In this document: positions 1,320 to 41,993 of the stretch, piece by piece | Position numbering within the stretch: position 1 is the stretch's first letter | Layout: every line of letters starts with the position of its first letter | Assembly: GCA_963748215.1 (NCBI GenBank) | Contig: CAVVHS010000005.1 | Location: 1 to 64,000 of the forward strand | Length of the DNA: 64,000 nt | From: an uncultured Gammaproteobacteria bacterium | GTDB lineage: Bacteria; Pseudomonadota; Gammaproteobacteria; UBA9214 | Direction: 5' to 3' | Translations under genes and position numbers: made by a program | Notes under the pieces: generated by a model | The model's database searches: none | Told to the model about the DNA's origin: nothing | The model's input: only the letters and a program-made list of their open reading frames with translations

Positions 1320-1543
1320 ATGAAACAACCTGAACCTATCACCCCGCGCCTGATCCGCTTCCGGGACGCACCCCGCTACCTGGGCATGGACCGGAACCGC
1401 TTTAACGCGAGGTCCGGCCCGTATCTGACGGAAATTCCGCATCGGACAACAAGGTATTGCCTTTGATCGACTTGAACTGGATGCCTGGGTAGACCACTAT
1501 AAGTCCCGCAACGGGCGTTCCGGTCAACTCAGAGGAGAATTGA
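1320..1543 (+). CDS. Excisionase/AlpA-like protein (frameshifted)
   Basis: MKQPEPITPRLIRFRDAPRYLGMDRNRFNA..PYLTEIP..GIAFDRLELDAWVDHYKSRNG pieced across frames, directly upstream of the integrase. Confidence 0.6.
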
Positions 1544-1544
1544 C

Positions 1545-2650
1545 ATGGGACGCAAAAGAACTGCCGGACTCTACAAGCGCAGCGGAATCTGGCACATCGA
1601 CAAACAGATCCGAGGCAGTCCGCATTTGCGAAAGCACTGGAGAAAGCAGCCTCGCAAAGGCGGAAGAATACCTCGCCAAGAAAACGGAGGAAGTCAGACA
1701 AGCGGTCATCTACGGTGTAAGGCCGAAACGCGCATTTCGGCTGGCCGCTACCAAGTACCTGAATGAGAACCAGCAGAAACGCCGCATCGCCGATACAGCG
1801 CTGCATCTGAAACAACTGGATCCCTACATCGGTAACCTGCCGATCGAATCGGTCCATATGGGAACATTGCAGCCCTTTATCGAGGCACGGCGCAAGCAGG
1901 GGATCAAGACCAAGAGCATCAACCTCGCTCTGGGCGTGGTACGGCACATTCTTAATCTGGCAGCATCGGAATGGCTGGATAAGAACAACCTGACCTGGTT
2001 GCACTCTCCACCAAAGATCAAGTTGCTGCCGGTGACAGACGCACGCAAGCCCTATCCGTTGTCCTGGGAAGAGCAGACGCGGCTGTTTAAGGAACTGCCT
2101 CCACATCTGGCACGGATGGCGCTGTTCAAGGTCAATACGGGTGCCGGAGAAAAGGAAGTGTGTTACCTGCGCTGGGAATGGGAAGTACCCGTTGCCGAAC
2201 TGGGTACCAGCGTATTCATCATCCCGGAAGATCGGGTGAAGAATGGTGAAGAACGCTTGCTGGTACTTAACCGGGTTGCAATGTCAGTCATCGAAGACGT
2301 CCGTGGTGAGCATCCTGATTACGTGTTCACCTATCGCGGCCATCCGATCACTGCCATGAACAACTCGGGTTGGCAACAGCGCACGCAAGCGTGTTGGTCT
2401 TTCTCTGGTTCGTGTCCACGACCTCAAGCACACATTCGGCCGTCGTTTACGGGCAGCAGGAGTAAGTTACGAGGATCGGCAGGACTTGTTGGGACACAAG
2501 TCAGGAAGAATCACCACACACTACTCGGCGGCTGAACTGGAGAACCTGATTGAAGCGGCCAACCGGGTGTGCGGAGAAAACTCCCGCAAAAGTCCCGCAC
2601 TGGTTTTGTTGAAACAAAAAGCGGCTACGGGACATACCGTAACCGCTTAA
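1545..2650 (+). CDS. Tyrosine recombinase/integrase (several frameshifts)
   Basis: MGRKRTAGLYKRSGIWHIDK start, middle part in ORF 1540..2535, C-term in another frame HDLKHTFGRRLRAAGVSYEDRQDLLGHKSGRITTHYS ending TAA at 2650. Confidence 0.85.
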
Positions 2651-2665
2651 TTTAACTTCGTAAAT

Positions 2666-2742
2666 TGGCGCGCCCGGAGAGATTCGAACTCCCGACCGCC
2701 TGGTTCGTAGCCAGGTACTCTATCCAGCTGAGCTACGGGCGC
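2666..2742 (-). tRNA. tRNA-Arg(ACG)
   Basis: Reverse complement GCGCCCGTAGCTCAGCTGGATAGAGTACCTGGCT-ACG-AACCAGGCGGTCGGGAGTTCGAATCTCTCCGGGCGCGCCA. Confidence 0.97.
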
Positions 2743-3082
2743 GTGGATAACAGGCGAGGAATTATACAGAAAAATCCCCGGCCGTCATGGCCGCACCGGC
2801 AGGATTTGCGGATTATTTCATTCGGTCCGGCAGGTGGAGGGGGAACTCATCGAAATGGGTGGTCACTGAACAAACCCAGGCACCCTCGCATGAGCGGCAT
2901 GCCAGCGCAGGAATGCAGGGGCCGCGCTCACTTCCTGACAAGCTGTCTGCGCCGTTGCCTGTATCCCATTGTATTAACGGGCGATTGGTATCACGCTCCG
3001 ATAACATCAGCCATTCGTGGGGAGGACCAGCGGTCGGGAAGGCGGTCCGGGAACCTCCTGCAGCAGCTTACCGCGGATCGTG

Positions 3083-3631
3083 CTACCAGCCCGACGTGCC
3101 GGGCTCACCCTTGAACGGGCCGACGATATCGTCGGTGATCCAGCCACCGTAGAAGCCACCCGCCTGCGCGCGCACCCGCTCGCCATCGACATAGCATTCC
3201 AGCCGGCCCGGATAAAACGCCAGATAATTTCGTATCGCGGCGAACTGGGCAGAGGGTTCCGGGTAAGTCCAGGCCGCCTGCTCCACACAGTCCTCACCCG
3301 CGCAGACATCGAAATAGTTTGCCCGCCCCTTCCATTCACAATAGCTGCCCTGCGTACCGAGGCGCAGGCAGTTGCGTTGTACGGAATCCGGCGGCAGGTA
3401 AAAGGTCGGCGGGCTGGCGGTCTCCAGTATCCGCCGGGCAGCACGGGTCTCGGCAATGAGCACATCATGTAGCCGGACCTGGACGAGGCGTGTGTCAGCC
3501 ACGATCACCGGCGGGCGCGGGTAATCCCATACCGATTCCTGACCGGGGCCCGGCACCACCGCACCGGCGGGCCGTGCCTGGCCGTGCAGCTGCCAGCCAT
3601 GCAGGGTGTGCCTGGGGTCGTCGTCAGTCAT
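3083..3631 (-). CDS. DUF427 family protein
   Basis: QESVWDYPRPP, ILETASPPTFYLP, SYCEWKG, FYGGWIT motifs. Confidence 0.85.
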   Translation of the reverse strand: MTDDDPRHTLHGWQLHGQARPAGAVVPGPGQESVWDYPRPPVIVADTRLVQVRLHDVLIAETRAARRILETASPPTFYLPPDSVQRNCLRLGTQGSYCEWKGRANYFDVCAGEDCVEQAAWTYPEPSAQFAAIRNYLAFYPGRLECYVDGERVRAQAGGFYGGWITDDIVGPFKGEPGTSGW

Positions 3632-3803
3632 GGTGATTCAGAGTATAGACAAGCGCAAAAGATTTAATCTCCGGTTGTTGCCCGCACCGGCCCCTGTCGA
3701 TACGCGCCCACCGAAGGTATTTATCATGGTGTGACGCATGCTCCCAAAGGCAGGCCGAACGTTTTTTCAGACGATGTGTGTGCCTGAATAACGGTAGCCT
3801 CTC

Positions 3804-3962
3804 TCAACGTCCGCCGTTACCCGCGCCCCGCCGGTACAGGATGCGTGCCGTAATGAGCACCAGCAGCAACAGCAGGCCAACGGGATAGGGAATGATGCCC
3901 GCAAGGAAGGCCAGCAGGGTCGCTGACAACAGCACCACCAGCACGACAAGCACAGGGTCCAT
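3804..3962 (-). CDS. Small membrane protein (52 aa)
   Basis: MDPVLVVLVVLLSATLLAFLAGIIPYPVGLLLLLVLITARIL two-TM hairpin just downstream of the permease. Confidence 0.6.
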   Translation of the reverse strand: MDPVLVVLVVLLSATLLAFLAGIIPYPVGLLLLLVLITARILYRRGAGNGGR

Positions 3963-3978
3963 GAAATTTGCCCATCCG

Positions 3979-6468
3979 TCACTGGTTGCGCAACAGCAGC
4001 ATCGGGCTGCGCTCGAGCACGGACCGCGTACCCCAGAAGCCGGCCGCGCCGATGAGCAGCGCGCCCGCGACCGGCGTGATAACCCATACCGGCCACTGGA
4101 GACTGTGCTCGAGGTGCAGCACCTCCCGGTACAACACCCAGGCCAGGCATTCCGTGCCCATCGCCGCCAGCAGGCCCGCCAGTCCGCCCAGTGCGGCGAA
4201 CTCGGCCAGGTGTCCGGCCCGCAGCTGGCGGCGGCTGCCACCGAGCGCGCGCAGGAGTGCCCCTTCATACAGCCGGTCATCCTGGCTGGCCTGCAGGGCG
4301 GCGAACAGCACGGCAAAACCCGCCAGCAGGGTAAAGACCAGCACGTACTCCACCGCCAGCGAGACCTGCCGCAGGATACGCCCGACCTGCTCGATCACCT
4401 GGTCCATCTCCAGCACGGTCACCGACGGGAATCGGGCCACCAGCTCGCGCAGCAACGACTTGTCTGCTTTCTGCAGATAGAAACTGGTGATGTAGGTGGC
4501 GGGAAACTGCTCGATGACCTGCGGCGGGAACACCATGTAGAAGTTCGGGCGGAACGAGTCCCACTGCACGCTGCGGATACTGGCCACCTCAGCGGTGAAG
4601 CGCTGTTCGCCGACCGCGAAGCGCAGCGCGTCACCCTGCTCTATTCCCATGCGCTCGGCGAGCTTCGCTTCCACCGATACCAGCGGCTTGCCCGTGTCGT
4701 CCGGCTGCCACCAGCGTCCCGCGAGGATGTGATTGTCTGCCTGCAGGGTCGTACTCCAGGTCAGGTTGAGTTCCCGGTTCAGGGCATTGTCATCGCGCGC
4801 CTCCTTGGTCACGGCCTCGCGCACGGCCGTGCCGTTGATCTCCACCAGCCGGCCGCGCACCATGGGATAGAGCTGCGCGGTTTCGATGCCGGCCTCGTCC
4901 ATGAACGCACTAAACGCCGCGACCTGCTCCGGCAGGATGTTGATGGCGAAGTGATCGGGCGCGTCAACGGGCAGCTGACGCTGCCAGGTCGTGACCAGGT
5001 CCGTGCGCACCAGGGCGACCACCGCCATCGCCATCAGCGTCAGGCCGAATGCCATGATCTGGCTGACACTGCCGCCGCGGCGGCGCCAGAGATTGTTCAG
5101 GCCGAATCGCCACGCCACGCCGACGCGGGTATTCAGGCGCCGGCTCAGCACCAGCAACAGCAAGGCAAACAGACCCAGCAAGGCGGCCAGCGCGCTACCG
5201 CCGGCCAGCACCGACAGCGTTAACGGCCAGCTGTCGGTATAGCGCCACATCAGCGCCACGATGGCGCCCAGGGCGGCACCATAGACCAGCCAGGCCTGGC
5301 TCGGCATGGGCAGCAGGTCACGCCGCAGCACCCGCAGGGGCGGCACCCCTTTCAGGCGCAGCACGGGCGGCAGCGCGAAGCCGACCAGCGTGATCAGGCC
5401 GGTGGCGAATCCCGCCAGCAGCGGCCAGGCCTGCGGCGCCGAGCGCGCGGCGGGCAGCAGGTCGGCCAGCAGATAGACCAGGCCGTACTGGGCCACCCAG
5501 CCGATGAAACAGCCGACGGCCGAGGCGACCAGGCCGATCACCAGCAGCTGCGGCAGGTAGAGACCGAGCAGATCGCGCTGCGAGGCACCCATGCAGCGCA
5601 GGATGGCGCTCATATCGAAATGCCGTTCGCTGTAGCGCCGCGCCGCCATGGCCACCGCGACCCCGGCGAGCACGATCGCCGCCAGCACGGCGAGACCGAG
5701 GTAACGTTCCGCCCGTTCCAGGGCCGAGCCCACGGCCCGGCGACCTTCTTTCACGCCGACCAGTTCGTGGCTGGGGCCCAGGCGCGGCTCGAGCCAGCCC
5801 CGGAATTCCGCCAGCTCGGCCTCGCCGCCCGCAAACAGGTACCGGTAGGACAGCCGGCTGCCCGGCTGGACCACGCCGGTTGCCGGGACATCCGCCAGCC
5901 GGATCAGGAGACGCGGCGAGATACCGAACGGATTCCCGACCTGGCCGGGTTCGAAGGTGATCACACGGGTTATGGTAAACGCCGTGGCGCCGACCTCCAC
6001 GGCGTCGCCCACCTGCAGGCCGAGGGTCGTAAGCAGGCGCGGCGCCGCCCACGCCTCCCCAGGCCGGGGCAGCGCTGTCGTCTCGACATCGGCGTCGAAC
6101 GGGGCCGGCGCGGTCCGCAACCGGCCCCGCAGCGGGAAGCCGTCCTGCACCGCCTTCACACTGGACAGCTGCAGGTCGTCGCCACCCACCACCACGCTGG
6201 CGAACTCGAGGGTCTCGATTGCCTGCAGCCCGGTGGCCCGGGCCTCATGGAGCCAGGCGGCATCCACCGGTCGCGGGCTGGTCAGGGCCAGGTCGGCGCC
6301 GAGAAAGTCCGCTGACTGGTTGACCATGCCGCGTCCCAGCCGGTCGGTGAAGAAGCCGATGGTCGTGCTGGCCGCCACGGCAATCACCAGGGCGACGACC
6401 AGGATACGCTGTTCCCCGGAGCGCCAGCTCCGGGCCAGCAGCCGCATGGACAGGCGCCAGCGGATCAC
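3979..6468 (-). CDS. ybbP: ABC transporter permease, FtsX/YbbP-like
   Basis: Two FtsX-type halves, VQWDSFRPNF motif, GTGA overlap with the ATPase. Confidence 0.88.
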   Translation of the reverse strand: MIRWRLSMRLLARSWRSGEQRILVVALVIAVAASTTIGFFTDRLGRGMVNQSADFLGADLALTSPRPVDAAWLHEARATGLQAIETLEFASVVVGGDDLQLSSVKAVQDGFPLRGRLRTAPAPFDADVETTALPRPGEAWAAPRLLTTLGLQVGDAVEVGATAFTITRVITFEPGQVGNPFGISPRLLIRLADVPATGVVQPGSRLSYRYLFAGGEAELAEFRGWLEPRLGPSHELVGVKEGRRAVGSALERAERYLGLAVLAAIVLAGVAVAMAARRYSERHFDMSAILRCMGASQRDLLGLYLPQLLVIGLVASAVGCFIGWVAQYGLVYLLADLLPAARSAPQAWPLLAGFATGLITLVGFALPPVLRLKGVPPLRVLRRDLLPMPSQAWLVYGAALGAIVALMWRYTDSWPLTLSVLAGGSALAALLGLFALLLLVLSRRLNTRVGVAWRFGLNNLWRRRGGSVSQIMAFGLTLMAMAVVALVRTDLVTTWQRQLPVDAPDHFAINILPEQVAAFSAFMDEAGIETAQLYPMVRGRLVEINGTAVREAVTKEARDDNALNRELNLTWSTTLQADNHILAGRWWQPDDTGKPLVSVEAKLAERMGIEQGDALRFAVGEQRFTAEVASIRSVQWDSFRPNFYMVFPPQVIEQFPATYITSFYLQKADKSLLRELVARFPSVTVLEMDQVIEQVGRILRQVSLAVEYVLVFTLLAGFAVLFAALQASQDDRLYEGALLRALGGSRRQLRAGHLAEFAALGGLAGLLAAMGTECLAWVLYREVLHLEHSLQWPVWVITPVAGALLIGAAGFWGTRSVLERSPMLLLRNQ

Positions 6469-7172
6469 GCGGGGCGCGCCTCCTGTTGATCGGAGACCAC
6501 CCGGCCGGCCTCCAGGCGGATAAGGCGCTCGCAACGGCCGGCCAGGTGCTCGTCATGGGTGACGAGCACCAGGGTGGTGCCCTTGTCCTGGTTGAGACGA
6601 AACAGTACATCGATCACCCGTTCGCCGGTCACATTGTCGAGATTGCCCGTCGGCTCGTCGGCAAACAGGATGGCGGGATCGGTGGCGAAGGCGCGCGCAA
6701 TCGCCACCCGCTGCTGTTCGCCGCCCGAGAGCTGTTTCGGATAATGCTGCAGGCGCCCTGCCAGTCCGACGCGACCCAGCAACTCCGACGCACGCGCCTG
6801 CGGCTCCGGCCGCCCGGCCAGTTCCAGCGGCAGCATGACATTCTCGAGCGCCGTCAGTCCGGGCAACAGCTGGAAGGACTGGAACACGAAACCCACCAGT
6901 TCGCCGCGCACCCGGGCCCGGCCGTCTTCATCCAGGTCATTGAGTCGATAGCGGGACAGGAACACCTCGCCGTCGGAAGGGAGATCCAGCCCGGCAAGCA
7001 GTCCCAGCAGGGTCGACTTGCCAGACCCGGAAACGCCGGTAATGGCCACGGTCTCCCCGAGCCGGATCTCGAATCCGATGTCCGTGAGGATATCCAGCGG
7101 ACCGGCGGCAGTATCCACACGTTTACTCAAGTTTCGGGCGGCTATCATGGTGGTATGCTTTGATCTCGCCAT
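6465..7172 (-). CDS. ybbA: ABC transporter ATP-binding protein
   Basis: GVSGSGKST, LSGGEQQRV, FADEPTGNLD. Confidence 0.9.
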   Translation of the reverse strand: MARSKHTTMIAARNLSKRVDTAAGPLDILTDIGFEIRLGETVAITGVSGSGKSTLLGLLAGLDLPSDGEVFLSRYRLNDLDEDGRARVRGELVGFVFQSFQLLPGLTALENVMLPLELAGRPEPQARASELLGRVGLAGRLQHYPKQLSGGEQQRVAIARAFATDPAILFADEPTGNLDNVTGERVIDVLFRLNQDKGTTLVLVTHDEHLAGRCERLIRLEAGRVVSDQQEARPA

Positions 7173-7848
7173 GCTGAATAGAATCCTGCTCCTGCTGTTG
7201 CTGTGCCTGCCGAATACGGCGCCTGCCGGTATCATACTGGTTGTCGGCGACAGTCTCAGCGCCGCCTACGGCATACCTGTTGAACAGGGCTGGGTCGCCC
7301 TGCTCGCCGAGCGCCTGGATACCCGGGAATATCCCTTCCGGATCGTCAATGCCAGCATCAGCGGCGACACCACCGCCAATGCCCGCGCCCGCTTGCCCGA
7401 TGCCCTGGCCAGCCATGCACCGTCCGTGGTGTTGCTGGCGCTCGGTGGCAATGACGGCCTGCGCGCCCTGTCCCTCGAAGCAATGAAGGACAATCTGGCT
7501 GCCATGATTGCCAGCGCGCGGAAAGCAGGCGCACAAATACTGCTTATCGGTGTGCAGCTGCCTCCCAACTATGGTCCCCGATACACCGAAAGGTTCCAGG
7601 CCGTTTACCGCGAACTTGCCCGGGAACATGACACGGCCCTGCTGCCTTCGCTCGTGGACGGCATCGGCACAAAGCAAAGCCTGATGCAGCCGGATGGCAT
7701 TCATCCCAATGCCGCCGCCCAGCCCCTGATACGGGACCGCGTCTGGGAGACACTGGAGCCGCTGCTGGAGCGGACAGATAATATCCGGGCCTTGGCCAAC
7801 CCGGGTCAGAACGCAGTTTCCGCTGATACTGAAAAACCTGCGCCCTGA
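7171..7848 (+). CDS. tesA: Arylesterase/acyl-CoA thioesterase I (SGNH)
   Basis: GDSLSAAYG, NASISGDTT, GGNDGLR, DGIHP; divergent from ybbA as in E. coli. Confidence 0.9.
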   Translation: MLNRILLLLLLCLPNTAPAGIILVVGDSLSAAYGIPVEQGWVALLAERLDTREYPFRIVNASISGDTTANARARLPDALASHAPSVVLLALGGNDGLRALSLEAMKDNLAAMIASARKAGAQILLIGVQLPPNYGPRYTERFQAVYRELAREHDTALLPSLVDGIGTKQSLMQPDGIHPNAAAQPLIRDRVWETLEPLLERTDNIRALANPGQNAVSADTEKPAP

Positions 7849-8128
7849 CAGGCTGCAATCCGCACGCTGTCATGACGTCGACGCTGCACTTTTTGCATGG
7901 CGCAGTGTCGAGCCTGCTCATGCTGAAACTGGCGAGTGGCTGGCAACAGGGATTGCGTGGCCTGCATCTCGCCGGGGTTGTTCGCTGCGCTCGCGCTTCA
8001 TCGCTCCCGGCGAGTATGAACAGCGACACAAGACGGCGCTGGCCCGAAGGGCGGAGAACCTGAATGTACAGAGTAATCCACCATCAATCATTCATAGAAA
8101 AAAGGGCCTCGCGACCCCTTTTTTTGCA

Positions 8129-8147
8129 TGGCGGAGAGGGAGGGATT
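8129..8147 (-). repeat. Copy of tRNA-Ser 3' 19 nt (att-like/RtT-like unit end)
   Basis: TGGCGGAGAGGGAGGGATT identical to 12665, 12841 and 13018; terminator hairpin AAAAAAGGGCCTCGCGACCCCTTTTTT next to it. Confidence 0.85.
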
Positions 8148-8330
8148 GCCGGGCACTTCCCTGTGTCCGGCCCTTCAGGTTCGCTGCGCAAAACGCTGGG
8201 AGCCCACCGAATCAGCCCGCCACTGCGTCAATCCCTTCGTCCATGCAAGCATTGCAATGACACTATTATTCAGTGTGTTATATAGTACTTCTGCGGTACT
8301 TTCACAAAATAACGCCCCGTTAGACTCAGG

Positions 8331-8948
8331 TCAGTCGTCCCATCGACCCACACCCGGAATCACCACCTGGTGCTCGTTGTAGACGCCGGTATCGGCGCTG
8401 CGATGACAGGCCTGGCAGTTACTGAAACTGCCCACCGCCGTATTACCCTGAATGAATCTCGCCGGAATCTCGTAGTGCTCGCGGCGGAAATAGTCCGTCT
8501 CCGTGATTCGAGGTAGCGCATTTGAGGCAGCCGAACCCCTGGCGAAAGCACGCGAGCGGGACTGGCCTGCATGATCAGCCGCGTTGACGATGAGATAACG
8601 ACGAATTTCATCGGCCGTTTGCTGGTCGAGTGACGCATCATCGCCGTAATGGTCATCCAGTGCGCTGATGATACGTTCCCAGGACTGTTGTGGCAGCAAC
8701 CCCGGCTGATAGGCGAAGTGACAGGCACCACACTCATTGCTGTAGGTGTCGCTCACAACCGGTCGCACATCCGGGCGCGATCCGGGCCAGGCACTTCGGC
8801 GGACGCTGTCCTCACGGTCGTCCGACTCGCGATGGTTTTGATAGCGCACTTCATCTTCCCGTTCGTCCTCTCCGGAGGAACTCATTACGGTGCCGATGGT
8901 GGCGACGGAAAGGATTCCGATAACAATCATGATAATGGTCTTTTTCAT
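8331..8948 (-). CDS. Diheme cytochrome c (DHC family)
   Basis: Signal anchor; ECGACH and NCQACH; YQPGLLP..SW, LDDHYGDDASLD, PRITET. Confidence 0.88.
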   Translation of the reverse strand: MKKTIIMIVIGILSVATIGTVMSSSGEDEREDEVRYQNHRESDDREDSVRRSAWPGSRPDVRPVVSDTYSNECGACHFAYQPGLLPQQSWERIISALDDHYGDDASLDQQTADEIRRYLIVNAADHAGQSRSRAFARGSAASNALPRITETDYFRREHYEIPARFIQGNTAVGSFSNCQACHRSADTGVYNEHQVVIPGVGRWDD

Positions 8949-8971
8949 GGCAATGCTCCTTTGTGTATTTC

Positions 8972-9367
8972 TCATTGACTGGTCAGGTATTGAATGAAGT
9001 CGCCCTTTTCCTGCGGCGTACATTCACGCCCGAGTGTCCACCGGCAGTTCCGGCGGAACCATTTCTCGACCTTTTCCGGGTCACTCAGTCGTGCGGGATT
9101 GACCGAAACAGCCATGGGCTCGATAGGCTTTCCGGTTTCGATGTGCTTGCCGGGCCGGCCTGGATCCGTCCCGTGACAAGTGGCACAACTCCGCGTGCCC
9201 GCAGCGCCGGCAGATTGATGTGTCTGTGTCCATGCGGACCCACCCGCCTCCGCCGAAAAGGGTCCAGCACCGGCACTTCGATAGCCCTGCATCAGATCCG
9301 CGCCGGACGCAAGGGCCGCGCCGGTGAACAGGATCCCTGCCACGCCAAAGACAATCTTCGATTTCAT
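8972..9367 (-). CDS. SHP-like/DUF1924 monoheme cytochrome c
   Basis: Signal peptide, SCATCH, GKPIEPMAVSVNP, KVEKWFRRNCRWTLGRECT. Confidence 0.85.
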   Translation of the reverse strand: MKSKIVFGVAGILFTGAALASGADLMQGYRSAGAGPFSAEAGGSAWTQTHQSAGAAGTRSCATCHGTDPGRPGKHIETGKPIEPMAVSVNPARLSDPEKVEKWFRRNCRWTLGRECTPQEKGDFIQYLTSQ

Positions 9368-9978
9368 TGTGTTTCCCTCCGTTTCTTTCCCGTGACCATG
9401 GCCACGATCAGGTTTTCGCGATGCTGCAAACTGGCCCACACCACCCCGACGACATGCAGGACGACGAGCAGCAGCGTCAGGTTGGCCAGGAACTCGTGCA
9501 TAACCTCGAATCCGGGTACCCAGCCCACCGGCAGGCCACCGAGCAACGGCGCCATGGGGCCCGACAGTTCCTGCGCGCCATAGACAGCCAGCCCGCTGAG
9601 GCCAGTGGCGGCCAGGCTCACGATGAGCGCTACCACCATGGCACCACCTGCAGGATTGTGTCCGAGGAAACGGGCAGCCCTCGATCGGACGGCGTCTTTC
9701 AGATAGGCAACGATTTCGGCCGGCTCCTTCACAAAGTCTGACCAGCGGGCGTGGCGCGGCCCCGCAAATCCCCACAGCAGCCGGACGGCAATCAGGCCGA
9801 GGATGACGTAGCCTGCCCACACATGCAGGGCAAGCCAGTCATCTTCGGCCACGTACGCAATCGTGAAACCCGCTGCCAGACTCCAGTGGAACAGGCGCAC
9901 CAGCGGATCCCAGACGCGCACCATCCCTGGCTGTGCCACAGGGGTGGTGCTGGTGGATAAACATGTTGTTTCGTTCAT
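9364..9978 (-). CDS. Cytochrome b/b6-domain protein (Ni/Fe-hydrogenase b-type)
   Basis: VWDPLVRLFHW, HVWAGY, GHNPAG, HEFLAN, LHVVGV, ENLIVAMVTG. Confidence 0.88.
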   Translation of the reverse strand: MNETTCLSTSTTPVAQPGMVRVWDPLVRLFHWSLAAGFTIAYVAEDDWLALHVWAGYVILGLIAVRLLWGFAGPRHARWSDFVKEPAEIVAYLKDAVRSRAARFLGHNPAGGAMVVALIVSLAATGLSGLAVYGAQELSGPMAPLLGGLPVGWVPGFEVMHEFLANLTLLLVVLHVVGVVWASLQHRENLIVAMVTGKKRRETQ

Positions 9979-10209
9979 GGCTGGCCTCTCGATAGTTGCC
10001 TTTCAGGGTCAAGCGTCACTGGATGTGCCTGCGCCGGTGGCGGATGTCCTCGACTGCCGATACGCCCGTGGACGCGGCACCGGAGGTGACGCCGGACAGG
10101 AATGGAATCAGGCTTTGTTTCATGGGTGATGCCTCCGTCGCCAGGCCGGCATCGAAGTCGTCATCAGACACGACTCCGCTTCCGATGCTTGTTAATCTAG
10201 CGCAAGGGT

Positions 10210-10249
10210 CCTGACCGACCCCTGAACACCGTTGTCAGCCTTTTGTCAG
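10210..10249. promoter_or_regulatory. OmpR-family tandem half-sites in a divergent promoter
   Basis: CCTGAC(10210), CCTGAA(10221), TTGTCAG(10232), TTGTCAG(10243), all 11-bp phased. Confidence 0.55.
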
Positions 10250-10274
10250 GTAACACTGCGCCATAATCAGGGCC

Positions 10275-10620
10275 ATGAAGCATCAGTTGATTTTGAATGT
10301 TCTGAAAACGGCGCCTCGCTGTCGCGCTGCTGACCGCGAGCCACATCGCATCGACCGGCGACCATGAATACCAGTGGGAGGATGACGACCATGCCTATGA
10401 CCGCGCACGCCGGGCGGTCGATCGCGGCGAGGCCCTGCCGATTGCGGAACTGCTGGAGCGCTTGAAAACCCGGGTTCCCGGCGAAGTGGTCGGGATCGAA
10501 TTCACGCGCGAGCACGGGAGATGGGTTTACGAGTTCAAGATCGTTGACGACAGCGGACTCCTGCTCGAAGTCTATGTCGATGCGAAAACCGGCAAGATAC
10601 TGTCGATGGAGGAAGACTGA
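10275..10620 (+). CDS. PepSY-domain protein (apparent frameshift near 10315; missed by ORF track)
   Basis: DRARRAVDRGEALPIAELL..PGEVVGIEF..GRWVYEFKIV..LEVYVDAKTGKIL; TGA overlaps the RR ATG. Confidence 0.8.
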
Positions 10621-11285
10621 TGCGCATTCTCCTGGTAGAAGACGACGACCAGACAGCCGCAGCCGTGCTCGCCTCTCTCGCCAGTGCCGGGTACGTGGTC
10701 GACCATGAAAGCGAGGGTGAAAAGGCCTGGTTCAGGGGGGATACCGAATCCTACGCCGCGGTCATCCTCGACCTGGGACTGCCGGGCATGGACGGGTTGT
10801 CGATACTCCGGAAATGGCGCCAGGCCGGACAGACCTTCCCGGTCCTGATTCTCACCGCCCGCGGCAACTGGAATGAACGTGTCGAGGGTATCGATGCGGG
10901 GGCAGATGACTACCTGCCCAAACCGTTCCAGATGCAGGAACTACAGGCCCGCTTGCGTGCCATCCTGCGGCGGTCTGCGGGACAGGCAACCCCCGTTATC
11001 ACGATCGGTCCCCTGTCACTCGACACCCGTCAGATGCGCGTCAGTGTGAACGATGTGCCTGTCCACCTGTCACCGCAGGAATACCGTCTGGTCCACTATC
11101 TCATACTGCATGCGGGACGCGTGGTATCACAGCTTGAACTGACCGAGCAGTTGTACGCCCGTGATTTCGAACGTGACTCCAATGCCGTTGAGGTGCTGAT
11201 CGGGCGCGTGCGCAAAAAGCTCGGCATCGACCTGATCCAGACGCGCCGGGGCTTCGGCTACGTCATCGAGACGCCGGAGCCGTGA
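10620..11285 (+). CDS. OmpR/PhoP-family response regulator
   Basis: MRILLVEDD, LDLGLPGMDG, GADDYLPKPF, TRRGFGY. Confidence 0.93.
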   Translation: MRILLVEDDDQTAAAVLASLASAGYVVDHESEGEKAWFRGDTESYAAVILDLGLPGMDGLSILRKWRQAGQTFPVLILTARGNWNERVEGIDAGADDYLPKPFQMQELQARLRAILRRSAGQATPVITIGPLSLDTRQMRVSVNDVPVHLSPQEYRLVHYLILHAGRVVSQLELTEQLYARDFERDSNAVEVLIGRVRKKLGIDLIQTRRGFGYVIETPEP

Positions 11286-12640
11286 CGCAACGTTCGCTTC
11301 GCTTCCGCCTGCTGGCATCTGCCGGTGTTTCAGTGGTTGTCGCGCTGCTCATTGCCGGCATGAGCCTGACAGTGATATTCGAGCACCACGTCAAACGCCG
11401 GATCGGCACCGAACTGGAAACCTATCTGAAGCAGATTGTCGCCGGCGTCAGTCTGATGCCGGATGGTCGTATCACCTCAACCGCAGCGCTGGCCGATCCG
11501 CGCTTCGATCAGCCGCTCAGTGGACTCTACTGGCAGGTCCAGGACGAGCAGCGCCCGCGACTCCTGCGCTCCCGCTCACTGTGGGACGATGTCATCACGC
11601 TCCCCGAGGACAGACTCGCACTCGGCACCGTCCATGAACACGACCTGCCGGGACCTGCCGGACAATCCCTGCTGGTTCGGGAACGCCAGATTGCCCTCCG
11701 CCACGCCGGCGACGAACGCCGGATCCGGATCGCCGTGGCCACGGACAAGCGCAGTCTTGCCGAGGCACGCAACGCCTTCGCTGCCGATATGCTGCCCTAT
11801 CTTGCGGTGATGGCAGCGGTCCTGCTGGCAGCGGCCTGGATACAGGTCCGTATCGGACTGGCGCCGCTGGATAATGTACGCCGCGGCGTCATGGAAATCC
11901 GCTCAGGGACATCGCGTCGCCTCGAAAGCCTGCATCCCGATGAAGTCATGCCACTCGTCGATGAGATAAACGGATTACTCGAAGCACAGGAGAAAACGAT
12001 TGAACGCGCGCGCGCATGGACCGCGGATCTTGCCCATGGACTCAAGACGCCACTGATGGTGCTGACGGCCGATGCGCAACGCTTGCGTGAAGAAGGCAAT
12101 ACGACGATCGCTGACGATCTGGATCAACTCTCCGAAACCATGCGCCGGCGCGTCGACCGGGAACTGATACGCGCCCGTGTTCGCTCGGGCGTTCAGAGCA
12201 GACGGGCGCGTGCCGAAGTGGTCGAGACAGTCAACCGCATTGTCCGCACCCTGAAACGCACACCGCGCGGCTCTGTCCTCGGCTGGACTGTCGAGACGCC
12301 TGACCGTGCGGATGCCGCCATTCCGGGCGATGACCTGACCGAACTCCTGGGCAACATCCTGGAAAATGCAACCAAGTGGGCCAACGAGATGGTTTCTGTC
12401 GCCATAGCCACGGGCAACGGTGTCATTATTACGATCGAGGATGACGGGCCCGGCGTGCCGGCAGGCCAGCTGGACAACCTGGGATTGCGTGGCATGAGGC
12501 TAGATGAGCAGAAGCAAGGCACCGGTCTGGGGCTTGCCATTGCCCGGGATATCGTCGAGGCCTATCACGGTGACTTGCTATTCAGCCATGCACCAACGGG
12601 AGGCCTGGCGGTGGTTGTTCGACTGCCAGCCGCGCCGTGA
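11282..12640 (+). CDS. Sensor histidine kinase
   Basis: Two TM segments, DLAHGLKTPL, NILENATKWA, DDGPG, GTGLGL. Confidence 0.93.
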   Translation: MTQRSLRFRLLASAGVSVVVALLIAGMSLTVIFEHHVKRRIGTELETYLKQIVAGVSLMPDGRITSTAALADPRFDQPLSGLYWQVQDEQRPRLLRSRSLWDDVITLPEDRLALGTVHEHDLPGPAGQSLLVRERQIALRHAGDERRIRIAVATDKRSLAEARNAFAADMLPYLAVMAAVLLAAAWIQVRIGLAPLDNVRRGVMEIRSGTSRRLESLHPDEVMPLVDEINGLLEAQEKTIERARAWTADLAHGLKTPLMVLTADAQRLREEGNTTIADDLDQLSETMRRRVDRELIRARVRSGVQSRRARAEVVETVNRIVRTLKRTPRGSVLGWTVETPDRADAAIPGDDLTELLGNILENATKWANEMVSVAIATGNGVIITIEDDGPGVPAGQLDNLGLRGMRLDEQKQGTGLGLAIARDIVEAYHGDLLFSHAPTGGLAVVVRLPAAP

Positions 12641-12664
12641 GGCGGTCTTTACACCCTGACCGGA

Positions 12665-13017
12665 TGGCGGAGAGGGAGGGATTACTCGCGCTGCGCGCTC
12701 GCCCTGCGGGCCGTTGCCGCTGCGCGGCAACGTTCTTCGGCGCGTTCCGCGCCTTGTCGAACCAGCCAATTGAATATCGAGGGTTCGAATCCGACCGATT
12801 CCACAAATCGAAAAGGCCCCATACAGGGGCCTTTTCAATTTGGCGGAGAGGGAGGGATTACTCGGCGCTGCGCGCTCGCCCTTCGGGCCGTTGCCGCTGC
12901 GCGGCAACGTTCTTCGGCGCGTTCCGCGCCTTGTCGAACCAGCCAATTGAATATCGAGGGTTCGAATCCGACCGCTTCCACAAATCGAAAAGGCCCCATA
13001 CAGGGGCCTTTTCAATT
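12665..13017 (-). repeat. Two tandem RtT-like tRNA-linked repeats (176 and 177 bp)
   Basis: Units 12665-12840 and 12841-13017 are near-identical; each has the tRNA 3' 19 nt and the terminator GAAAAGGCCCC-ATACA-GGGGCCTTTTC. Confidence 0.9.
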
Positions 13018-13108
13018 TGGCGGAGAGGGAGGGATTCGAACCCTCGATGGGCTTTTGACCCATACTCCCTTAGCAGGGGAGCGCCTTCGGCCTCTCGGCC
13101 ACCTCTCC
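13018..13108 (-). tRNA. tRNA-Ser(GCT)
   Basis: GGAGAGGTGGCCGAGAGGCCGAAGGCGCTCCCCT-GCT-AAGGGAGT..long variable arm..GGTTCGAATCCCTCCCTCTCCGCCA; follows csrA. Confidence 0.97.
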
Positions 13109-13268
13109 TGAACGACGTAAAACGTTGCAGACGGGATTATAACGAGAAACAACCGGAATTGTTCAAATCATTGCTGCGTGTAGCCCGGATGTCGTCACCT
13201 GTCCGGCACCGCTGGCATTACCCTGGCAATTTGTGGGTAAAGATTTTGCCGAAACTTGCACGAACCCG

Positions 13269-13463
13269 TCAGGACTGGTTGGTACCATCCTTGTGGCTCT
13301 GCTCGTCCTTGATGCGTTCGTAAATTTCCTCGCGGTGCACGGCAACATTCTTAGGTGCATTTACCCCGATCCGGACCTGATTTCCTTTCACACCCAGTAC
13401 GGTGATGGTGATGTCATCACCGACCATGAGGGTTTCTCCAACTCTGCGAGTAAGTATCAACAT
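13269..13463 (-). CDS. csrA: Carbon storage regulator
   Basis: [39 protein letters not shown]. Confidence 0.97.
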
Positions 13464-13678
13464 CTTTTCAACCTCTTGTTATCGTGTGTCCCTGCCAAGG
13501 TTTGTGCCATTGTTTGTTATTCTGTTCAGCCCGCCGGAATGGTTGAAACACCGGCGAAAGCAATATCCTGTGGTCCAATTTCGATTGATGTAGAAGTATA
13601 TATGAAAGTCGAGATAAGAGAATATCCTGGAAAGCATATTAACAGGATTTTTTACCATATTGTTTATATTGATAAATA

Positions 13679-14905
13679 TCATGCCTTCGCCTGATCGAGA
13701 TGGAAGGCGTCATGTAGCGCCCGCACACCCAGCTCCAGGTACTTTTCATCGACTACCACGGAGATCTTGATCTCCGAGGTCGAGATCATGCGGATGTTGA
13801 TGCCCTCGCGGGCCAGCGCCTCGAACATGGTCGAGGCAATACCGGCATGCGAGCGCATGCCGACACCGACCAGCGAGATCTTCACGATCCTGTTATCGCC
13901 GCTGACCTCGCGCGCGCCCAGCTCGCGTGCGGTACTCTCCAGGATCGACATGGCGCGCTTGTAGTCGTTGCGGTGTACGGTAAAGGTGAAGTCGGTGGTC
14001 GCACCGTCCGGGGCGATGTTCTGCACGATCATGTCCACCTCGATATTCGCCGCCGCGATCGGACCGAGCAGCTTGAACGCGACGCCAGGGGTGTCCGGCA
14101 CGCCGATCACGGTCAGCTTGGCCTCGTCCCGGTTGAACGCGATACCGGATATCAATACGTCTTCCATCTTCTCTTCCTCGTAGGTGATCAACGTGCCCTC
14201 GCCTTCCTCGAACGACGACAGTACGCGTAACGGGACATTGTAGCGGCCGGCAAAACTGACCGAGCGGATCTGCAGCACCTTGGAACCCAGGCTGGCCATC
14301 TCCAGCATTTCCTCGAAGGTAATGCGGTCGAGCCGGCGTGCATTCGGCACCACGCGTGGGTCCGTGGTGTAGACGCCATCCACATCGGTATAGATCTGGC
14401 ACTCGTCCGCCTTCAGCGCCGCGGCCAGCGCCACGGCCGTGGTATCCGAACCACCGCGCCCCAGCGTGGTGATGTTGCCGTGCTCGTCCGCGCCCTGGAA
14501 TCCGGCCACCACCACGACGCGTCCCGCGCGCAGGTCGGCATGAACGCGCTTGTCATCGATTTCCCGAATGCGTGCCTTGTTGTGCGCACTGTCGGTCAGG
14601 ATGTGCACCTGCGAACCGGTATAGGAACGCGCCGGACAGCCGCGTTTTTCAAGCGCCATGCTGAGCAGCGCAATCGTCACCTGTTCACCGGTCGCAAGCA
14701 GCACGTCGAGCTCGCGCGGCGACGGCGCATCGCTGATCGCGCCGGCGAGGTCGATCAGGCGGTTGGTCTCGCCGCTCATCGCGGAGACCACGACCACCAG
14801 GTCGTTGCCGCGATTGCGCCAGTCGATGACCTTGTCGGCCACGTGCCCGATCCGTTCGGGCGACCCGACCGAGGTGCCGCCGTATTTCTGAACGATGAGT
14901 GCCAT
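13679..14905 (-). CDS. lysC: Aspartate kinase
   Basis: MALIVQKYGGTSVG, TTLGRGGSDTTAV, ACT domains. Confidence 0.95.
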   Translation of the reverse strand: MALIVQKYGGTSVGSPERIGHVADKVIDWRNRGNDLVVVVSAMSGETNRLIDLAGAISDAPSPRELDVLLATGEQVTIALLSMALEKRGCPARSYTGSQVHILTDSAHNKARIREIDDKRVHADLRAGRVVVVAGFQGADEHGNITTLGRGGSDTTAVALAAALKADECQIYTDVDGVYTTDPRVVPNARRLDRITFEEMLEMASLGSKVLQIRSVSFAGRYNVPLRVLSSFEEGEGTLITYEEEKMEDVLISGIAFNRDEAKLTVIGVPDTPGVAFKLLGPIAAANIEVDMIVQNIAPDGATTDFTFTVHRNDYKRAMSILESTARELGAREVSGDNRIVKISLVGVGMRSHAGIASTMFEALAREGINIRMISTSEIKISVVVDEKYLELGVRALHDAFHLDQAKA

Positions 14906-32434: not shown

Positions 32435-33376
32435 TCATCCGCGCGGGTGGTGTTGTGCATGCAGATCCTTGAGACGCTCACGTGCCACATGAGTATAGAT
32501 CTGTGTCGTCGACAGGTCACTATGCCCCAGCAGCATCTGCACCACGCGCAGGTCCGCGCCGTGGTTGAGCAGGTGGGTCGCGAAGGCGTGACGCAGGGTA
32601 TGCGGTGACAAGTGCTTGTTTATTCCGGCTTTTATAGCATGCAGTCGGAGTCGGTGCCAGAATGTCTGGCGAGTCATGCCCTGGCCGCGGCGCGACACAA
32701 ACAGGTGGTGGGACGCCACCGCCAGCTGCGGGCGCGACTCATCGAGGTAGCGCTGCAGCCACTCCACGGCCTCCTCGCCCAGCGGCACCAGGCGTTCCTT
32801 GCTGCCCTTGCCCATCAGTCGTACCACACCCTGGGTAAGGTTGACCTGGTCGGTGGTCAGGCCGACCAGCTCGGACACGCGCAGGCCACAGGCGTACAGC
32901 AGTTCCAGCATGGCGCGGTCGCGCAGGCCCAGGGCGTCGCCGGTATCCGGGGCGTGTAACAGCTCGTCCACTTCCTGCTCGCTCAGGGTGTCCGGCAACG
33001 GCCGGCCGATACGCGGTGATTCGATGCGCACGCTGGGGTCTTCGGTAATGCGGCCCTCACGCACCAGGTGCCGGTAGAAACGGCGCAGCGAGGACAGCAG
33101 GCGGGCCGTGGTGCGGGGTTTTGCCCCGTCCATCACCCGCGCCGAGAGATAGTCCAGCAGATCCTGGCGCCGGGCCTCCAGCAGCGTCCGGCCCTGCGGC
33201 AGCAGCCAGGCGGCCAGCCCGGCGAGGTCGTTGCGGTAGGCCGCCAGCGTGTGATCGCTCAGGCCGCGCTCCATCCACAGCGCATCGGCGAAATGCTCGA
33301 TCTCGCGCAACTCGGCCGCCAGCGCCGCAGCCTCCGGCGTTTCAGCCGCAGTCACGGCGGGACGGGTTCGCTTCAC
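32435..33376 (-). CDS. xerD: Tyrosine recombinase XerD
   Basis: LYACGLRVSEL, GKGSKERLVP, SPHTLRHAFATHLLNHGADLR..TTQIYTHV. Confidence 0.95.
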   Translation of the reverse strand: MKRTRPAVTAAETPEAAALAAELREIEHFADALWMERGLSDHTLAAYRNDLAGLAAWLLPQGRTLLEARRQDLLDYLSARVMDGAKPRTTARLLSSLRRFYRHLVREGRITEDPSVRIESPRIGRPLPDTLSEQEVDELLHAPDTGDALGLRDRAMLELLYACGLRVSELVGLTTDQVNLTQGVVRLMGKGSKERLVPLGEEAVEWLQRYLDESRPQLAVASHHLFVSRRGQGMTRQTFWHRLRLHAIKAGINKHLSPHTLRHAFATHLLNHGADLRVVQMLLGHSDLSTTQIYTHVARERLKDLHAQHHPRG

Positions 33377-41330: not shown

Positions 41331-41397
41331 TTCTCCATTTTGCCACAAGTATCAATAGCGATTGTGACTTCGCTATCTCTGGATTTTCTTAGCATCA

Positions 41398-41992
41398 GGT
41401 TTCGCCCTGTCGGGCGAGGTACTTTTCTTTGCTTCGCCAAAGACTAATTCGCCGGGAGCGGATTTGGACAGCCGCAGGCTGGCCCGCAGGGCGAAGTCCA
41501 TGGACGGACTTCGCAAAAGTACCCAACAACGACTGCCCCGGAGGCTGGGTTGTCAAAACACCCAGATATACAAGGCCGCTGCGCAGCCTTGCCCATGCGC
41601 TTCTCGACGGTTTGGGACCATTTCTACAAGCCCGCTACGCAGGCTTGCCCGTCAGGATTTGCCGCGCCTTCGGCTAGCAAATCCAGCTCGACAGGGCGGC
41701 TCGCACTGATACTAAAATCCCGCTACGCAGGATTTGGCTGCGATGCTCGGCTGTGCCTGGCGGGACCAAAATGCACCACCCTTTCCCCGTTGGCCGCGCC
41801 GAGTACCGCAGTCAAGCCGGGATCAAGGCGCGCACCCTGTCCGAGGCAAGCCGGAGCGGGATGAACATCCCGCTCCGGCTCCGAGTTGTGCGCGCCCCCG
41901 GCTTGGCGAGGAACGGAGGTGTTCGGCGAAGCCGACGCGGCCAGCGGGTGCCCTTCTCTTTGGGTACTTTCTCTTGGGCACGCGAGAGTACC
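41398..41992. mobile_element. ~600-bp non-coding multi-hairpin element with nested inserts
   Basis: Ends GGTACTTTTCTTTG..AAAGTACC and TCTCTTTGGGTACTTTCTCTTGGGCACGCGAGAG; many GNA-triloop hairpins; no credible ORF. Confidence 0.6.
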
Positions 41993-41993
41993 T

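Follow-up and report, generated by a model that had tools for sequence, protein, structure and literature searches.

A discrete, gene-less DNA module made up of four hairpins (70-85 nt across its family), which splits copies of tRNA loops at a ...GA^A... junction (the caret marks the point of insertion), is described here from a window of 64,000 nt (C5:1-64000, the start of contig C5 of an uncultured gammaproteobacterium whose genome, G000, comprises 3.5 Mb in 9 contigs), where it lies within two tandem repeats of the RtT family (Rfam RF00391) behind a tRNA-Ser gene. The module follows a consistent junction rule, its sites exist in both empty and filled forms, and its arrays have a defined polarity with respect to the tRNA gene. 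It is probably (we give the reading as a whole a probability of about 0.6) a small non-autonomous insertion element that targets GA^A with a preference for tRNA D- and T-loops, RtT repeats being its products in redundant tRNA fragments and the enzyme acting in trans. Insertions outside tRNA sequences and the polarity of D-loop and T-loop insertions are what is new here.

Split T-loops in the window, the genome and Escherichia coli

On the minus strand of the window, lysC and csrA (assigned by Pfam) are followed by tRNA-Ser(GCT) and then by two tandem RtT units:

13018..13108, minus strand: intact tRNA-Ser(GCT) (ARAGORN; Rfam tRNA 58 bits)
12841..13017, minus strand: RtT unit 1, 177 nt (Rfam RF00391 match 12841-12988, 52.5 bits, gathering score 45)
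12953..12973, minus strand: inverted copy of the tRNA-Ser T-arm in unit 1, 19/21 nt (by sequence; outer helix of the Rfam RtT alignment)
12859..12933, minus strand: 75-nt four-hairpin module, the main finding (GGTTCGA at 12934-12940, ATCCCTCCCTCTCCGCCA at 12841-12858)
12665..12840, minus strand: RtT unit 2, 176 nt, built like unit 1 (Rfam RtT match 12665-12811, 42.2 bits, below 45)
12683..12756, minus strand: 74-nt module of unit 2 (by sequence)

Both units consist of a terminator hairpin (which separates the tRNA from each unit), an inverted T-arm (GGTCGGATTCGAACCCTCGAT, the reverse complement of the tRNA-Ser T-arm region in 19/21 nt), a 12-nt spacer, GGTTCGA, the module and, closing the unit, ATCCCTCCCTCTCCGCCA, which is the final 18 nt of tRNA-Ser. 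Joining GGTTCGA to ATCC across the module restores the T-loop and its flanks exactly in units 1 and 2, and the T-loop of the intact tRNA-Ser(GCT), GGTTCGA^ATCC, is the unsplit or "empty" form of the site. According to the Rfam RtT alignment, the inverted T-arm at 12953-12973 is able to pair with the split T-arm.

Folding of the 75-mer with DNA energies gives hairpin-GAAGAAC-hairpin-hairpin-GA-hairpin-GAGTA at -27.6 kcal/mol (z = -4.0 relative to 100 dinucleotide shuffles), with GAA, GCA, GAA and GCA loops, all four of the GNA type. The four-hairpin fold was obtained for 13/21 module copies. Stem sequences vary among copies while pairing is retained, and RNAalifold on a MAFFT alignment of the 21 copies, an alignment that is poor over the 5' half of the H-type copies (those of repeat H, below), gave 15 pairs, 9 of them with double changes in at least one sequence. 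The two ends of the module (C... and ...GAGTA) are not inverted copies of one another; target duplications and inverted ends are absent from every copy, and the flanks restore the empty site exactly. The last base of the module and the base before it in the target are both A, so placement of the junction is ambiguous by one base. The junctions recorded (TTCGA^A, TTCA^A, CTGA^A, TTGA^A, TCGA^A, AAGA^A, CTCGA^A and GAGA^A) follow the rule ...GA^module^A..., with the exception of the CA^A class of the tRNA-Pro type. An initial annotation, made by a model from the letters alone, had described units of GGTTCGA, an insert and a tRNA 3' end split at GA^A, had drawn the insert as a series of hairpins with GNA loops and had named a consistent junction and the Rfam RtT family as points to check; its description of the units proved exact, and the junction holds throughout apart from the single CA^A class.

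Unit 1 exceeds the gathering score of the family and unit 2 falls just below it; the RF00391 consensus itself reads ...GGUuCGA-hairpins-AUCCuuCcCccaCCACCA; and the units are placed as RtT repeats are, 3' of a tRNA gene, in tandem and ending in the 3' end of that tRNA including CCA. At tyrT-tyrV of E. coli K-12, the tRNA-Tyr T-loop is split in the same way (...GGGGAAGGATGAGAAGCTTCGACCAAGGTTCGA, 68-69 nt of four hairpins, ATCCTTCCCCCACCACCA) in the unit of the spacer and in each of the three that follow tyrV. The 178-bp tyrT-tyrV repeats (RtT/rttR) thus resemble the present units in their inverted T-arm, AAGGTTCGA, 68-69-nt four-hairpin module and ATCCTTCCCCCACCACCA, as well as in their tandem arrangement and variable number, and over ~70 nt the 3' half of the window unit shares 77-83% identity with enterobacterial RtT. 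They differ in that the units here lie behind tRNA-Ser and nine other tRNA genes and not behind tRNA-Tyr, and in that here the module core by itself has also entered D-loops, a second repeat and a gene. Since the same split is present in the E. coli units, it is a general property of RtT, and the earlier suggestion that such a module could explain how RtT-like repeats arise gains from this, RtT units (those of E. coli included) being tRNA fragments split by the module.

The tyrT repeats of E. coli were reportedly described in the late 1970s and are not known to have an accepted origin or function. In the portions available of the literature searched, which did not cover the original 1991 description, RtT is treated solely as an RNA or a variable repeat and never as an insertion module (10.1101/2024.07.17.603846, PMC8092127, PMC3318445, PMC7657543, PMC2658671); the first of these also reports raised mobilome coverage over tyrT-rttR (10.1101/2024.07.17.603846).

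Across the 3.5-Mb genome, the Rfam RtT model gave 25 matches at E<=1, 7 of them over threshold, and the units examined, a few degenerate ones aside, carry the 3' end of one of the genome's own tRNA genes, usually the adjacent one; for these two reasons the pattern goes beyond chance. An nhmmer profile built from 21 module copies located 47 places at E<=1, a count that includes the 21 input copies, matched by construction. ARAGORN recognized 43 tRNA genes and one transfer-messenger RNA, and the identical split was found at ten of the tRNA genes (Ser x4, Gln x2, Glu, Arg(ccg), Lys and Val), with further tails located away from their gene:

tRNA-Ser (gct, gga, cga, tga): units at each
tRNA-Gln (ctg, ttg): units at each
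tRNA-Glu (ttc): 3 units
tRNA-Arg (ccg): units present
tRNA-Val (gac): units present
tRNA-Lys (ttt): units present
C6 807-884 kb: tails of the tRNA-Arg(acg) type, away from that gene
C6 17-74 kb: tails of the tRNA-Pro(ggg) type, away from that gene

The split reads TTCGA^ATCC, with TTCGA^TTCC at tRNA-Arg(ccg) and TTCA^AATCC in tails of the Pro type, and therefore keeps to the loop position (58/59) rather than strictly to G-A.

Insertions in D-loops, repeat H and a transposase gene

Module copies were also located outside T-loops:

C5:191665-191742: D-loop insertion in a spare tRNA-Ser copy
C6:477221-477609: three tandem 172-nt D-loop units upstream of tRNA-Ser(tga), the third partial
41383..41988, plus strand: repeat H, ~600 bp, with ~80-bp inverted ends that each contain a 14-bp perfect hairpin; multi-copy in the genus
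41444..41515, plus strand: 72-nt module of a second kind in the left-end hairpin of repeat H (fold z = -4.5)
C6:837326-837684: remnant of an IS91-type (PF04986, Y2) transposase gene, interrupted by a module
C6:837421-837491, antisense to the frame: 71-nt module in that remnant (Pfam, frame reading)
C9:306635-306706: further copy, at the site GTCAGAGA^...^A

Upstream of tRNA-Ser(gga), a second promoter with tRNA positions 1-22, ending in GGTTGA, is followed by a 78-nt module, by decayed tRNA sequence and then by the real promoter and the intact tRNA-Ser(gga). The units at tRNA-Ser(tga) read GGAGAGGTGGCTGAGTGGTCGA^module^AAGCGGCGG.... In three relatives (G003, G013 and G015) a near full-length pseudo-tRNA-Ser just upstream of the intact gene contains two different modules, one splitting the D-loop (GGCTGA^A) and the other the T-loop (GGTTCGA^ATCC).

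Repeat H, which has many copies in the genus and is matched in 27/37 genomes, with up to 15 matches per relative genome, has no clear gene and no Rfam match, and no Rfam RtT match was obtained in 41300-42050, the module at 41444-41515 included. This module interrupts a hairpin, GGTACTTTTCTTTG-CTTCGC-CAAAGA^AAAGTACC, in its 3' arm; the initial annotation had already picked out a 72-nt insert splitting CAAAGA^ at this place, and the insert is real, with a layout like that of the 12859 copy and an identical third hairpin. Among the 30 H loci fetched, 35 intact hairpins stand against 7 distinct filled ones (44 rows of the parse are without a module, 35 of them intact and 9 truncated or not H, and the 8 rows with a module represent 7 insertions). 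The filled hairpins are of two kinds. In one, the module splits the inner arm of the left hairpin (CAAAGA^module^AAAGTACC); in the other, it lies in the right hairpin, on the opposite strand (CAAGA^module^AAAAGTACC). The module therefore follows AAGA^AAAGTACC and not the orientation of its host. This implies at least two independent insertion events into H, and copies of one and the same kind may have spread along with H. No relative shares the flanks of the H copy in the window, which leaves it without an orthologous empty site.

In the Y2 remnant, two Pfam matches meet at model position 149 and the frames read ...TVRYQLKTPYRDGTTHVM, module, FEPLDFMARLAALVPRPRVNLTRYHGVF... (..DGTTHVM, module, FEPLDF..). 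An intact homolog in a relative (L090 of G041, ...DGTTHVIFEPLDF...) aligns with both flanks and leaves the module as a clean 71-nt gap; on the module strand the site is GGCTCGA^ACATG. Hairpin context was considered as an extra determinant of the target and rejected: it holds for T-loop and H sites, which lie on the 3' side of hairpins, and fails at the Y2 site, which is not in a hairpin. The comparison of empty with filled sites, which had been proposed together with the module, is available in three forms, namely 35 versus 7 hairpins of H, an intact homolog of the Y2 gene, and intact tRNAs beside the copies split in the D-loop and/or T-loop.

As regards the relation between the two kinds of module, the 12859 and 41444 copies share the common layout and an identical third hairpin (GGCCC-GNA-GGGC-GA), and their remaining three stems differ in sequence and length and still pair. 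Modules were compared with the Rfam model and with nhmmer profiles (hidden Markov models, HMMs). The T-loop HMM finds the D-loop copy C5:191675 (E = 2e-7). The 4-copy H-type HMM finds C3:715, C9:306637 (3e-11), the copy in the Y2 gene (1e-9) and, beside tRNA-Val, a copy of the T-loop type (E = 0.007), its values for the other tRNA-linked copies being only 0.1-3.4 (0.5-3.4 for the Pro-type and Ser(tga) D-loop copies). The first H-type hairpin (AATCGCCGGGAGCGATT) also occurs in T-loop modules (the Pro type and the tRNA-Ser unit of G008) and in the Ser(tga) D-loop copies, and the Y2 copy combines the first H-type hairpin with a GAGTA tail of the T-loop type. The link between T-loop and H-type copies appears to be indirect, through layout, the identical third hairpin and intermediate forms, and on the strength of these intermediates the family is read as modules with exchangeable hairpins. 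A short repeat (...ggaggtacgAGTCCATGGATGGACTcggtagagcgaagc...) has a hairpin nearly identical to the fourth H-type hairpin, which hints that module hairpins may be shared with other repeat families; examples of this repeat in the present genome are:

C5:142843, C7:302967, C7:243979, C6:591153, C6:868402, C6:221488

Arrays, accessory genes and distribution

T-loop insertions lie downstream of the intact tRNA and D-loop insertions upstream of it, and one intact gene is always retained. The arrays may contain accessory genes, as is the case in the window, where the following features lie beyond the two tandem units or elsewhere:

8130..8148, minus strand: another tRNA-Ser 3' end, the third, 4.5 kb downstream of the tandem units (by sequence)
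8149..~8215, minus strand: degenerate module remnant adjoining this tail, by eye like the module variant of G008 (...GCGYAGCGAACCYGAAGGGCCGGRCACAGGGAAGTGCCCGRCA)
8014..8075, plus strand: degenerate module-like stretch in the opposite orientation, GGCCCGAAGGGCG...GAGTA followed by ATCC (module nhmmer E = 0.53)
2666..2742, minus strand: tRNA-Arg(ACG) (ARAGORN)
2378-2533, plus strand: tyrosine integrase fragment (PF00589 positions 116-168) beside tRNA-Arg(ACG) (Pfam)
32477-32989, minus strand: full-length tyrosine recombinase resembling XerC/XerD (194 bits with PF00589); the genome has just one other intact gene of this kind

About 10.3 kb (2743-13017) lies between tRNA-Ser and tRNA-Arg and is divided by the RtT units: two units are followed by a two-component system and cytochrome genes (which occupy the space up to the 8130-8148 tail), the third tail with its remnant (8130-8215), a lipase and an ABC transporter. 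By Pfam, these genes encode an ABC/FtsX transporter, a GDSL lipase, a dihaem cytochrome c, DUF1924, cytochrome b561 and the two-component system. In four relatives (G007, G010, G015 and G023) the csrA-tRNA-Ser-tRNA-Arg locus has tRNA-Arg a few dozen bases after tRNA-Ser, and therefore the ~10.3 kb of the window is inserted material. G008 has one unit followed by the same spacer and tRNA-Arg, and G002 and G017 have tandem units; module variants at this locus differ from species to species, and whole units are present or absent. Two degenerate copies had been proposed here beforehand: the one at 8014-8075 is weak (see its E value above), and the likeness of 8149-~8215 was judged by eye, this remnant having no match by the module HMMs or Rfam; no Rfam RtT match was obtained in 7800-8400. 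The fragment at 2378-2533 resembles a decayed island integrase.

Assembled contigs of 4 metagenome runs were aligned to positions 1500-14500 of the window. Joints of 2742-2745 to 13018-13021, with 6-31 other letters between, were found in 4/4 runs and most likely represent relatives without the 10.3-kb insert; metagenome contigs break at repeats and are uninformative on excision.

A larger array lies behind tRNA-Lys(ttt), where seven accessory blocks of ~1.5-25 kb each extend over ~90 kb (C9:310571-400758, L027-L031) and carry AbiE, Wadjet JetABCD, PIN, MscK, Mrp antiporter, adenosine phosphosulfate (APS) reductase and efflux pump genes. The blocks end in a conserved arm and a terminator, a pseudo-tRNA-Lys that begins in the anticodon loop and stops at GGTTCGA, a module of 82 nt and ATCCAACACGACCCACCA; in most blocks the next ~75-100 bp closely resemble what comes after the real tRNA-Lys. 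No integrase or tyrosine recombinase (PF00589) was found within this 90-kb array or the array at C6 807-884 kb.

RtT was detected in 16/18 sampled genomes of the genus versus 1/12 other families (E<=0.01), the present genome having the highest number in the genus sample (18 matches); in the class, 20/150 other families had matches at E<=1e-4, 5 of them over threshold. In E. coli, 4741/5426 genomes have RtT at 1-14 places each (median 3) and 685 are without a match. Patchiness, together with ~80% identity between E. coli and this lineage, would fit horizontal spread or strong constraint. No match was found in 50,697 phage records, and the matches in the plasmid collection are enterobacterial RtT, several in multi-megabase records. 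Eighteen RtT places in E. coli are on records labelled plasmid.

Proposed mechanism, rival explanations and related systems

If the module is an insertion element, as favored here, insertion would be precise at ...GA^A..., at T-loop position 58/59 or the 3' D-loop edge of tRNA copies and occasionally at look-alike sites, and an RtT repeat would be a partial redundant tRNA copy, split by the module and kept beside one intact tRNA. T-loop hits would seed downstream arrays and D-loop hits upstream arrays, the number of units would then change through recombination between repeats, and in large arrays the units would separate accessory gene blocks. The module would move as DNA, probably as a folded single strand, since the junctions are seamless, inverted ends are absent and the hairpins have GNA loops; a trans-acting site-specific nuclease or recombinase would cut after ...GA and after the last A of the module, and whole units or cargo might travel when the ...GA^ site of the tRNA itself serves as one of the two cuts. 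The closed module junction would then read ...GAGTA joined to C..., and the resealed unit site GGTTCGAATCC. A more far-reaching version, in which RtT modules form a new class of non-autonomous elements (~75 nt) that home to D- and T-loop GA^A as folded single-stranded DNA, by means of an enzyme so far linked to no repeat family, and through the split tRNA tails left behind seed tRNA-anchored, integron-like arrays that capture and exchange accessory gene blocks, is put forward tentatively, as something we would not expect to hold in full.

The initial annotation had inferred a tiny mobile module possibly moved by an HUH transposase. Its first part stands, insofar as the module is discrete and site-selective, with empty and filled sites and a consistent junction; the HUH link is not supported, as the Y1 genes have their own repeats, the Y2 gene is itself a victim of the module and no TnpB or IS200-type partner was found. 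All six PF01797 (Y1) genes resemble REP-associated tyrosine transposases (RAYTs) and are flanked by unrelated repetitive extragenic palindromes (REPs) of their own, of the GTAGG or TAGGG type. A Y2/IS91 partner was rejected with the finding that the Y2 remnant is module-interrupted and that intact IS91-like elements of relatives end unlike the module; that of G045 (2574 bp, with a 410-aa Y2 transposase) is present in four copies (L092-L094 and L080), three of them ~100% identical and L080 93%, with the ends TGTTAAGGGTTGTAAG... and ...ACCGCGCGAGCGGTTTAGTCC. IS200/IS605 genes were not found in the genome, and the TnpB domain (PF07282) gave one match there, below the cut-off. One reverse transcriptase and two IS110 genes in the genome were discarded as candidates, none being near or linked to modules. 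Finally, PF00589 has 5 matches in the genome (two XerC/D-like, one with a stop and two fragments, that at 2378-2533 included), and none of the five lies within the arrays. Copies are on the G-rich strand in 35/44 cases versus 34/43 for tRNA genes and 3/6 for non-tRNA copies; no bias is apparent over and above that of the tRNA genes, whose orientation would confound any lagging-strand signal.

Several points weigh against a mobile element. No mobilizing gene was found in the genome among the Y1, Y2, TnpB, tyrosine recombinase, reverse transcriptase and IS110 genes examined. The 14-copy T-loop HMM misses the H-type, Y2 and C9:306635 copies at E<=10. The empty and filled sites are paralogs or homologs, with no single-module polymorphism at an orthologous site, and thus do not show a recent move; among the metagenome joints listed (15 of 31), none removes the module alone or one unit. 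GA^A alone is too short to account for loop specificity, to which the Y2 site outside any hairpin adds, and the reading does not account for the inverted T-arm of every downstream unit. Additionally, the sources report that RtT is transcribed in E. coli (10.1101/2024.07.17.603846 among them) and that RtT RNA has a covariation-supported tandem GA motif (PMC7657543), so part of the conservation may reflect RNA function.

RNA function is central to one alternative, according to which RtT is a structured RNA that evolved in place: a duplicated tRNA tail would have grown hairpins, spread by gene conversion through its GGTTCGA/ATCC flanks and been kept for a tRNA-like minihelix function with a CCA end. 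Besides the GA motif, it would accommodate the over-threshold match to an Rfam family, the RNA reported from E. coli and Thioalkalivibrio, and the fact that each unit ends in the acceptor strand and CCA of the tRNA and can pair with the inverted T-arm; flanks common to many tRNAs could moreover support conversion. We nevertheless judge it unlikely, as the module also occurs in D-loops, on either strand of the H hairpins and antisense in a transposase frame, where the shared flank is only GA...A, and as terminators stand between the tRNA and the units here.

Gene capture anchored at tRNA is the second alternative, in which the units would be recombination sites like integron attC, unit-ended cassettes would enter the T-loop via an unlinked recombinase, and solo modules would be minimal "empty cassettes". 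The tRNA-(cargo-unit)n order behind tRNA-Lys, with a like pattern at tRNA-Ser of the window and at the tRNA-Arg-type units of C6, agrees with it, as does the nature of the units, which are folded hairpin structures with a fixed junction; yet the arrays were found to have no linked recombinase, whether of the integron type or another, the long conserved arms at the tRNA-Lys units would also permit plain homologous recombination, and most units are cargo-free tandem copies, which together make it improbable.

That the units are attachment-site scars of integrase-driven islands or phages at tRNA 3' ends, with the module as part of an element arm, is very doubtful: direct repeats of tRNA 3' ends, the accessory genes (~10.3 kb) that separate tRNA-Ser from tRNA-Arg, together with the integrase fragment at 2378-2533, and the seven tRNA-Lys cargo blocks, each ending in pseudo-tRNA-Lys and module and then ~75-100 bp as after the real tRNA, would be expected of such scars, but the tRNA-Lys and C6 807-884 kb arrays hold no tyrosine recombinase (of 5 genome-wide, two are XerC/D-like), the 176-nt tandem units are without cargo, the module sits within the tRNA-homologous core, so that the tRNA would not survive a crossover on the 5' side of the module, D-loops, repeat H and a gene hold module copies too, and the phage records gave no match.

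Should the module prove to be a mobile element, the origin of the classic RtT repeat would be explained, and a possibly new mode of moving DNA, for which no transposase candidate is at hand here, would become testable in E. coli itself. Integrase-less accessory hotspots behind tRNAs (with Wadjet, AbiE, transporters and sulfur genes at tRNA-Lys) would gain a candidate boundary element. For annotation, the inserts of 70-85 nt in the loops of pseudo-tRNAs are not to be taken for introns, nor RtT matches simply for small-RNA genes.

Among known systems, IS200/IS605 insertion sequences and the gene-less palindrome-associated transposable elements (PATEs) insert seamlessly 3' of a short fixed sequence, have end hairpins and follow a single-strand logic. 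The module is comparable in its apparently seamless insertion 3' of a fixed short target, without duplication or inverted ends. It differs in having four hairpins and not one per end, and no cognate Y1 or TnpB was found in the genome, because of which it is not an IS200/IS605 member by the tests run. Terminal inverted repeats and target-site duplications, as in DDE-type miniature inverted-repeat transposable elements, are absent. Elements that target tRNA genes, such as those treated by Williams in 2002 and the tycheposons, reportedly rely on tyrosine integrases that use the T-loop or the 3' end; duplicated tRNA 3' ends, accessory blocks behind tRNAs and arrays are common to both, whereas the arrays here have no tyrosine integrase (serine recombinases were not searched), the 176-nt units are cargo-free and non-tRNA sites are used too. 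Like integron attC sites, the units are folded, single-strand-type hairpin sites that end array cassettes beside a fixed entry point; unlike them, the entry point is a tRNA loop, no integron-type integrase was recognized among the 5 PF00589 matches, and no attC-type palindrome layout was apparent, by eye only.

REPs are, like the module, short, GC-rich, hairpin-forming and gene-less repeats, and RAYT-like genes are present in the genome. On the other hand, the module is not a 20-40-bp palindrome with a GTAG/CGTC tag (GTAG is lacking), the REPs on either side of the RAYT genes are unrelated to it, and both its set of four hairpins and its insertion site are fixed. Two of the RAYT-like genes (C9:59900-61120 and C2:111500-112460) lie within dense arrays of their own GTAGG-type REPs, their 600-bp flanks having 80 and 534 other BLAST hits for the former and 80 and 31 for the latter, and a further RAYT-like Y1 gene is located at C3:109354-110121. 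Two identical RAYT-like Y1 genes (C9:315993-316769 and C9:333326-334102), flanked by repeats of the GAATAGGGGACAGACC type, lie 1.1-1.2 kb from tRNA-Lys-type units; the sequence they share stops ~30 nt past the gene, as if gene and repeats had moved as one ~850-bp unit.

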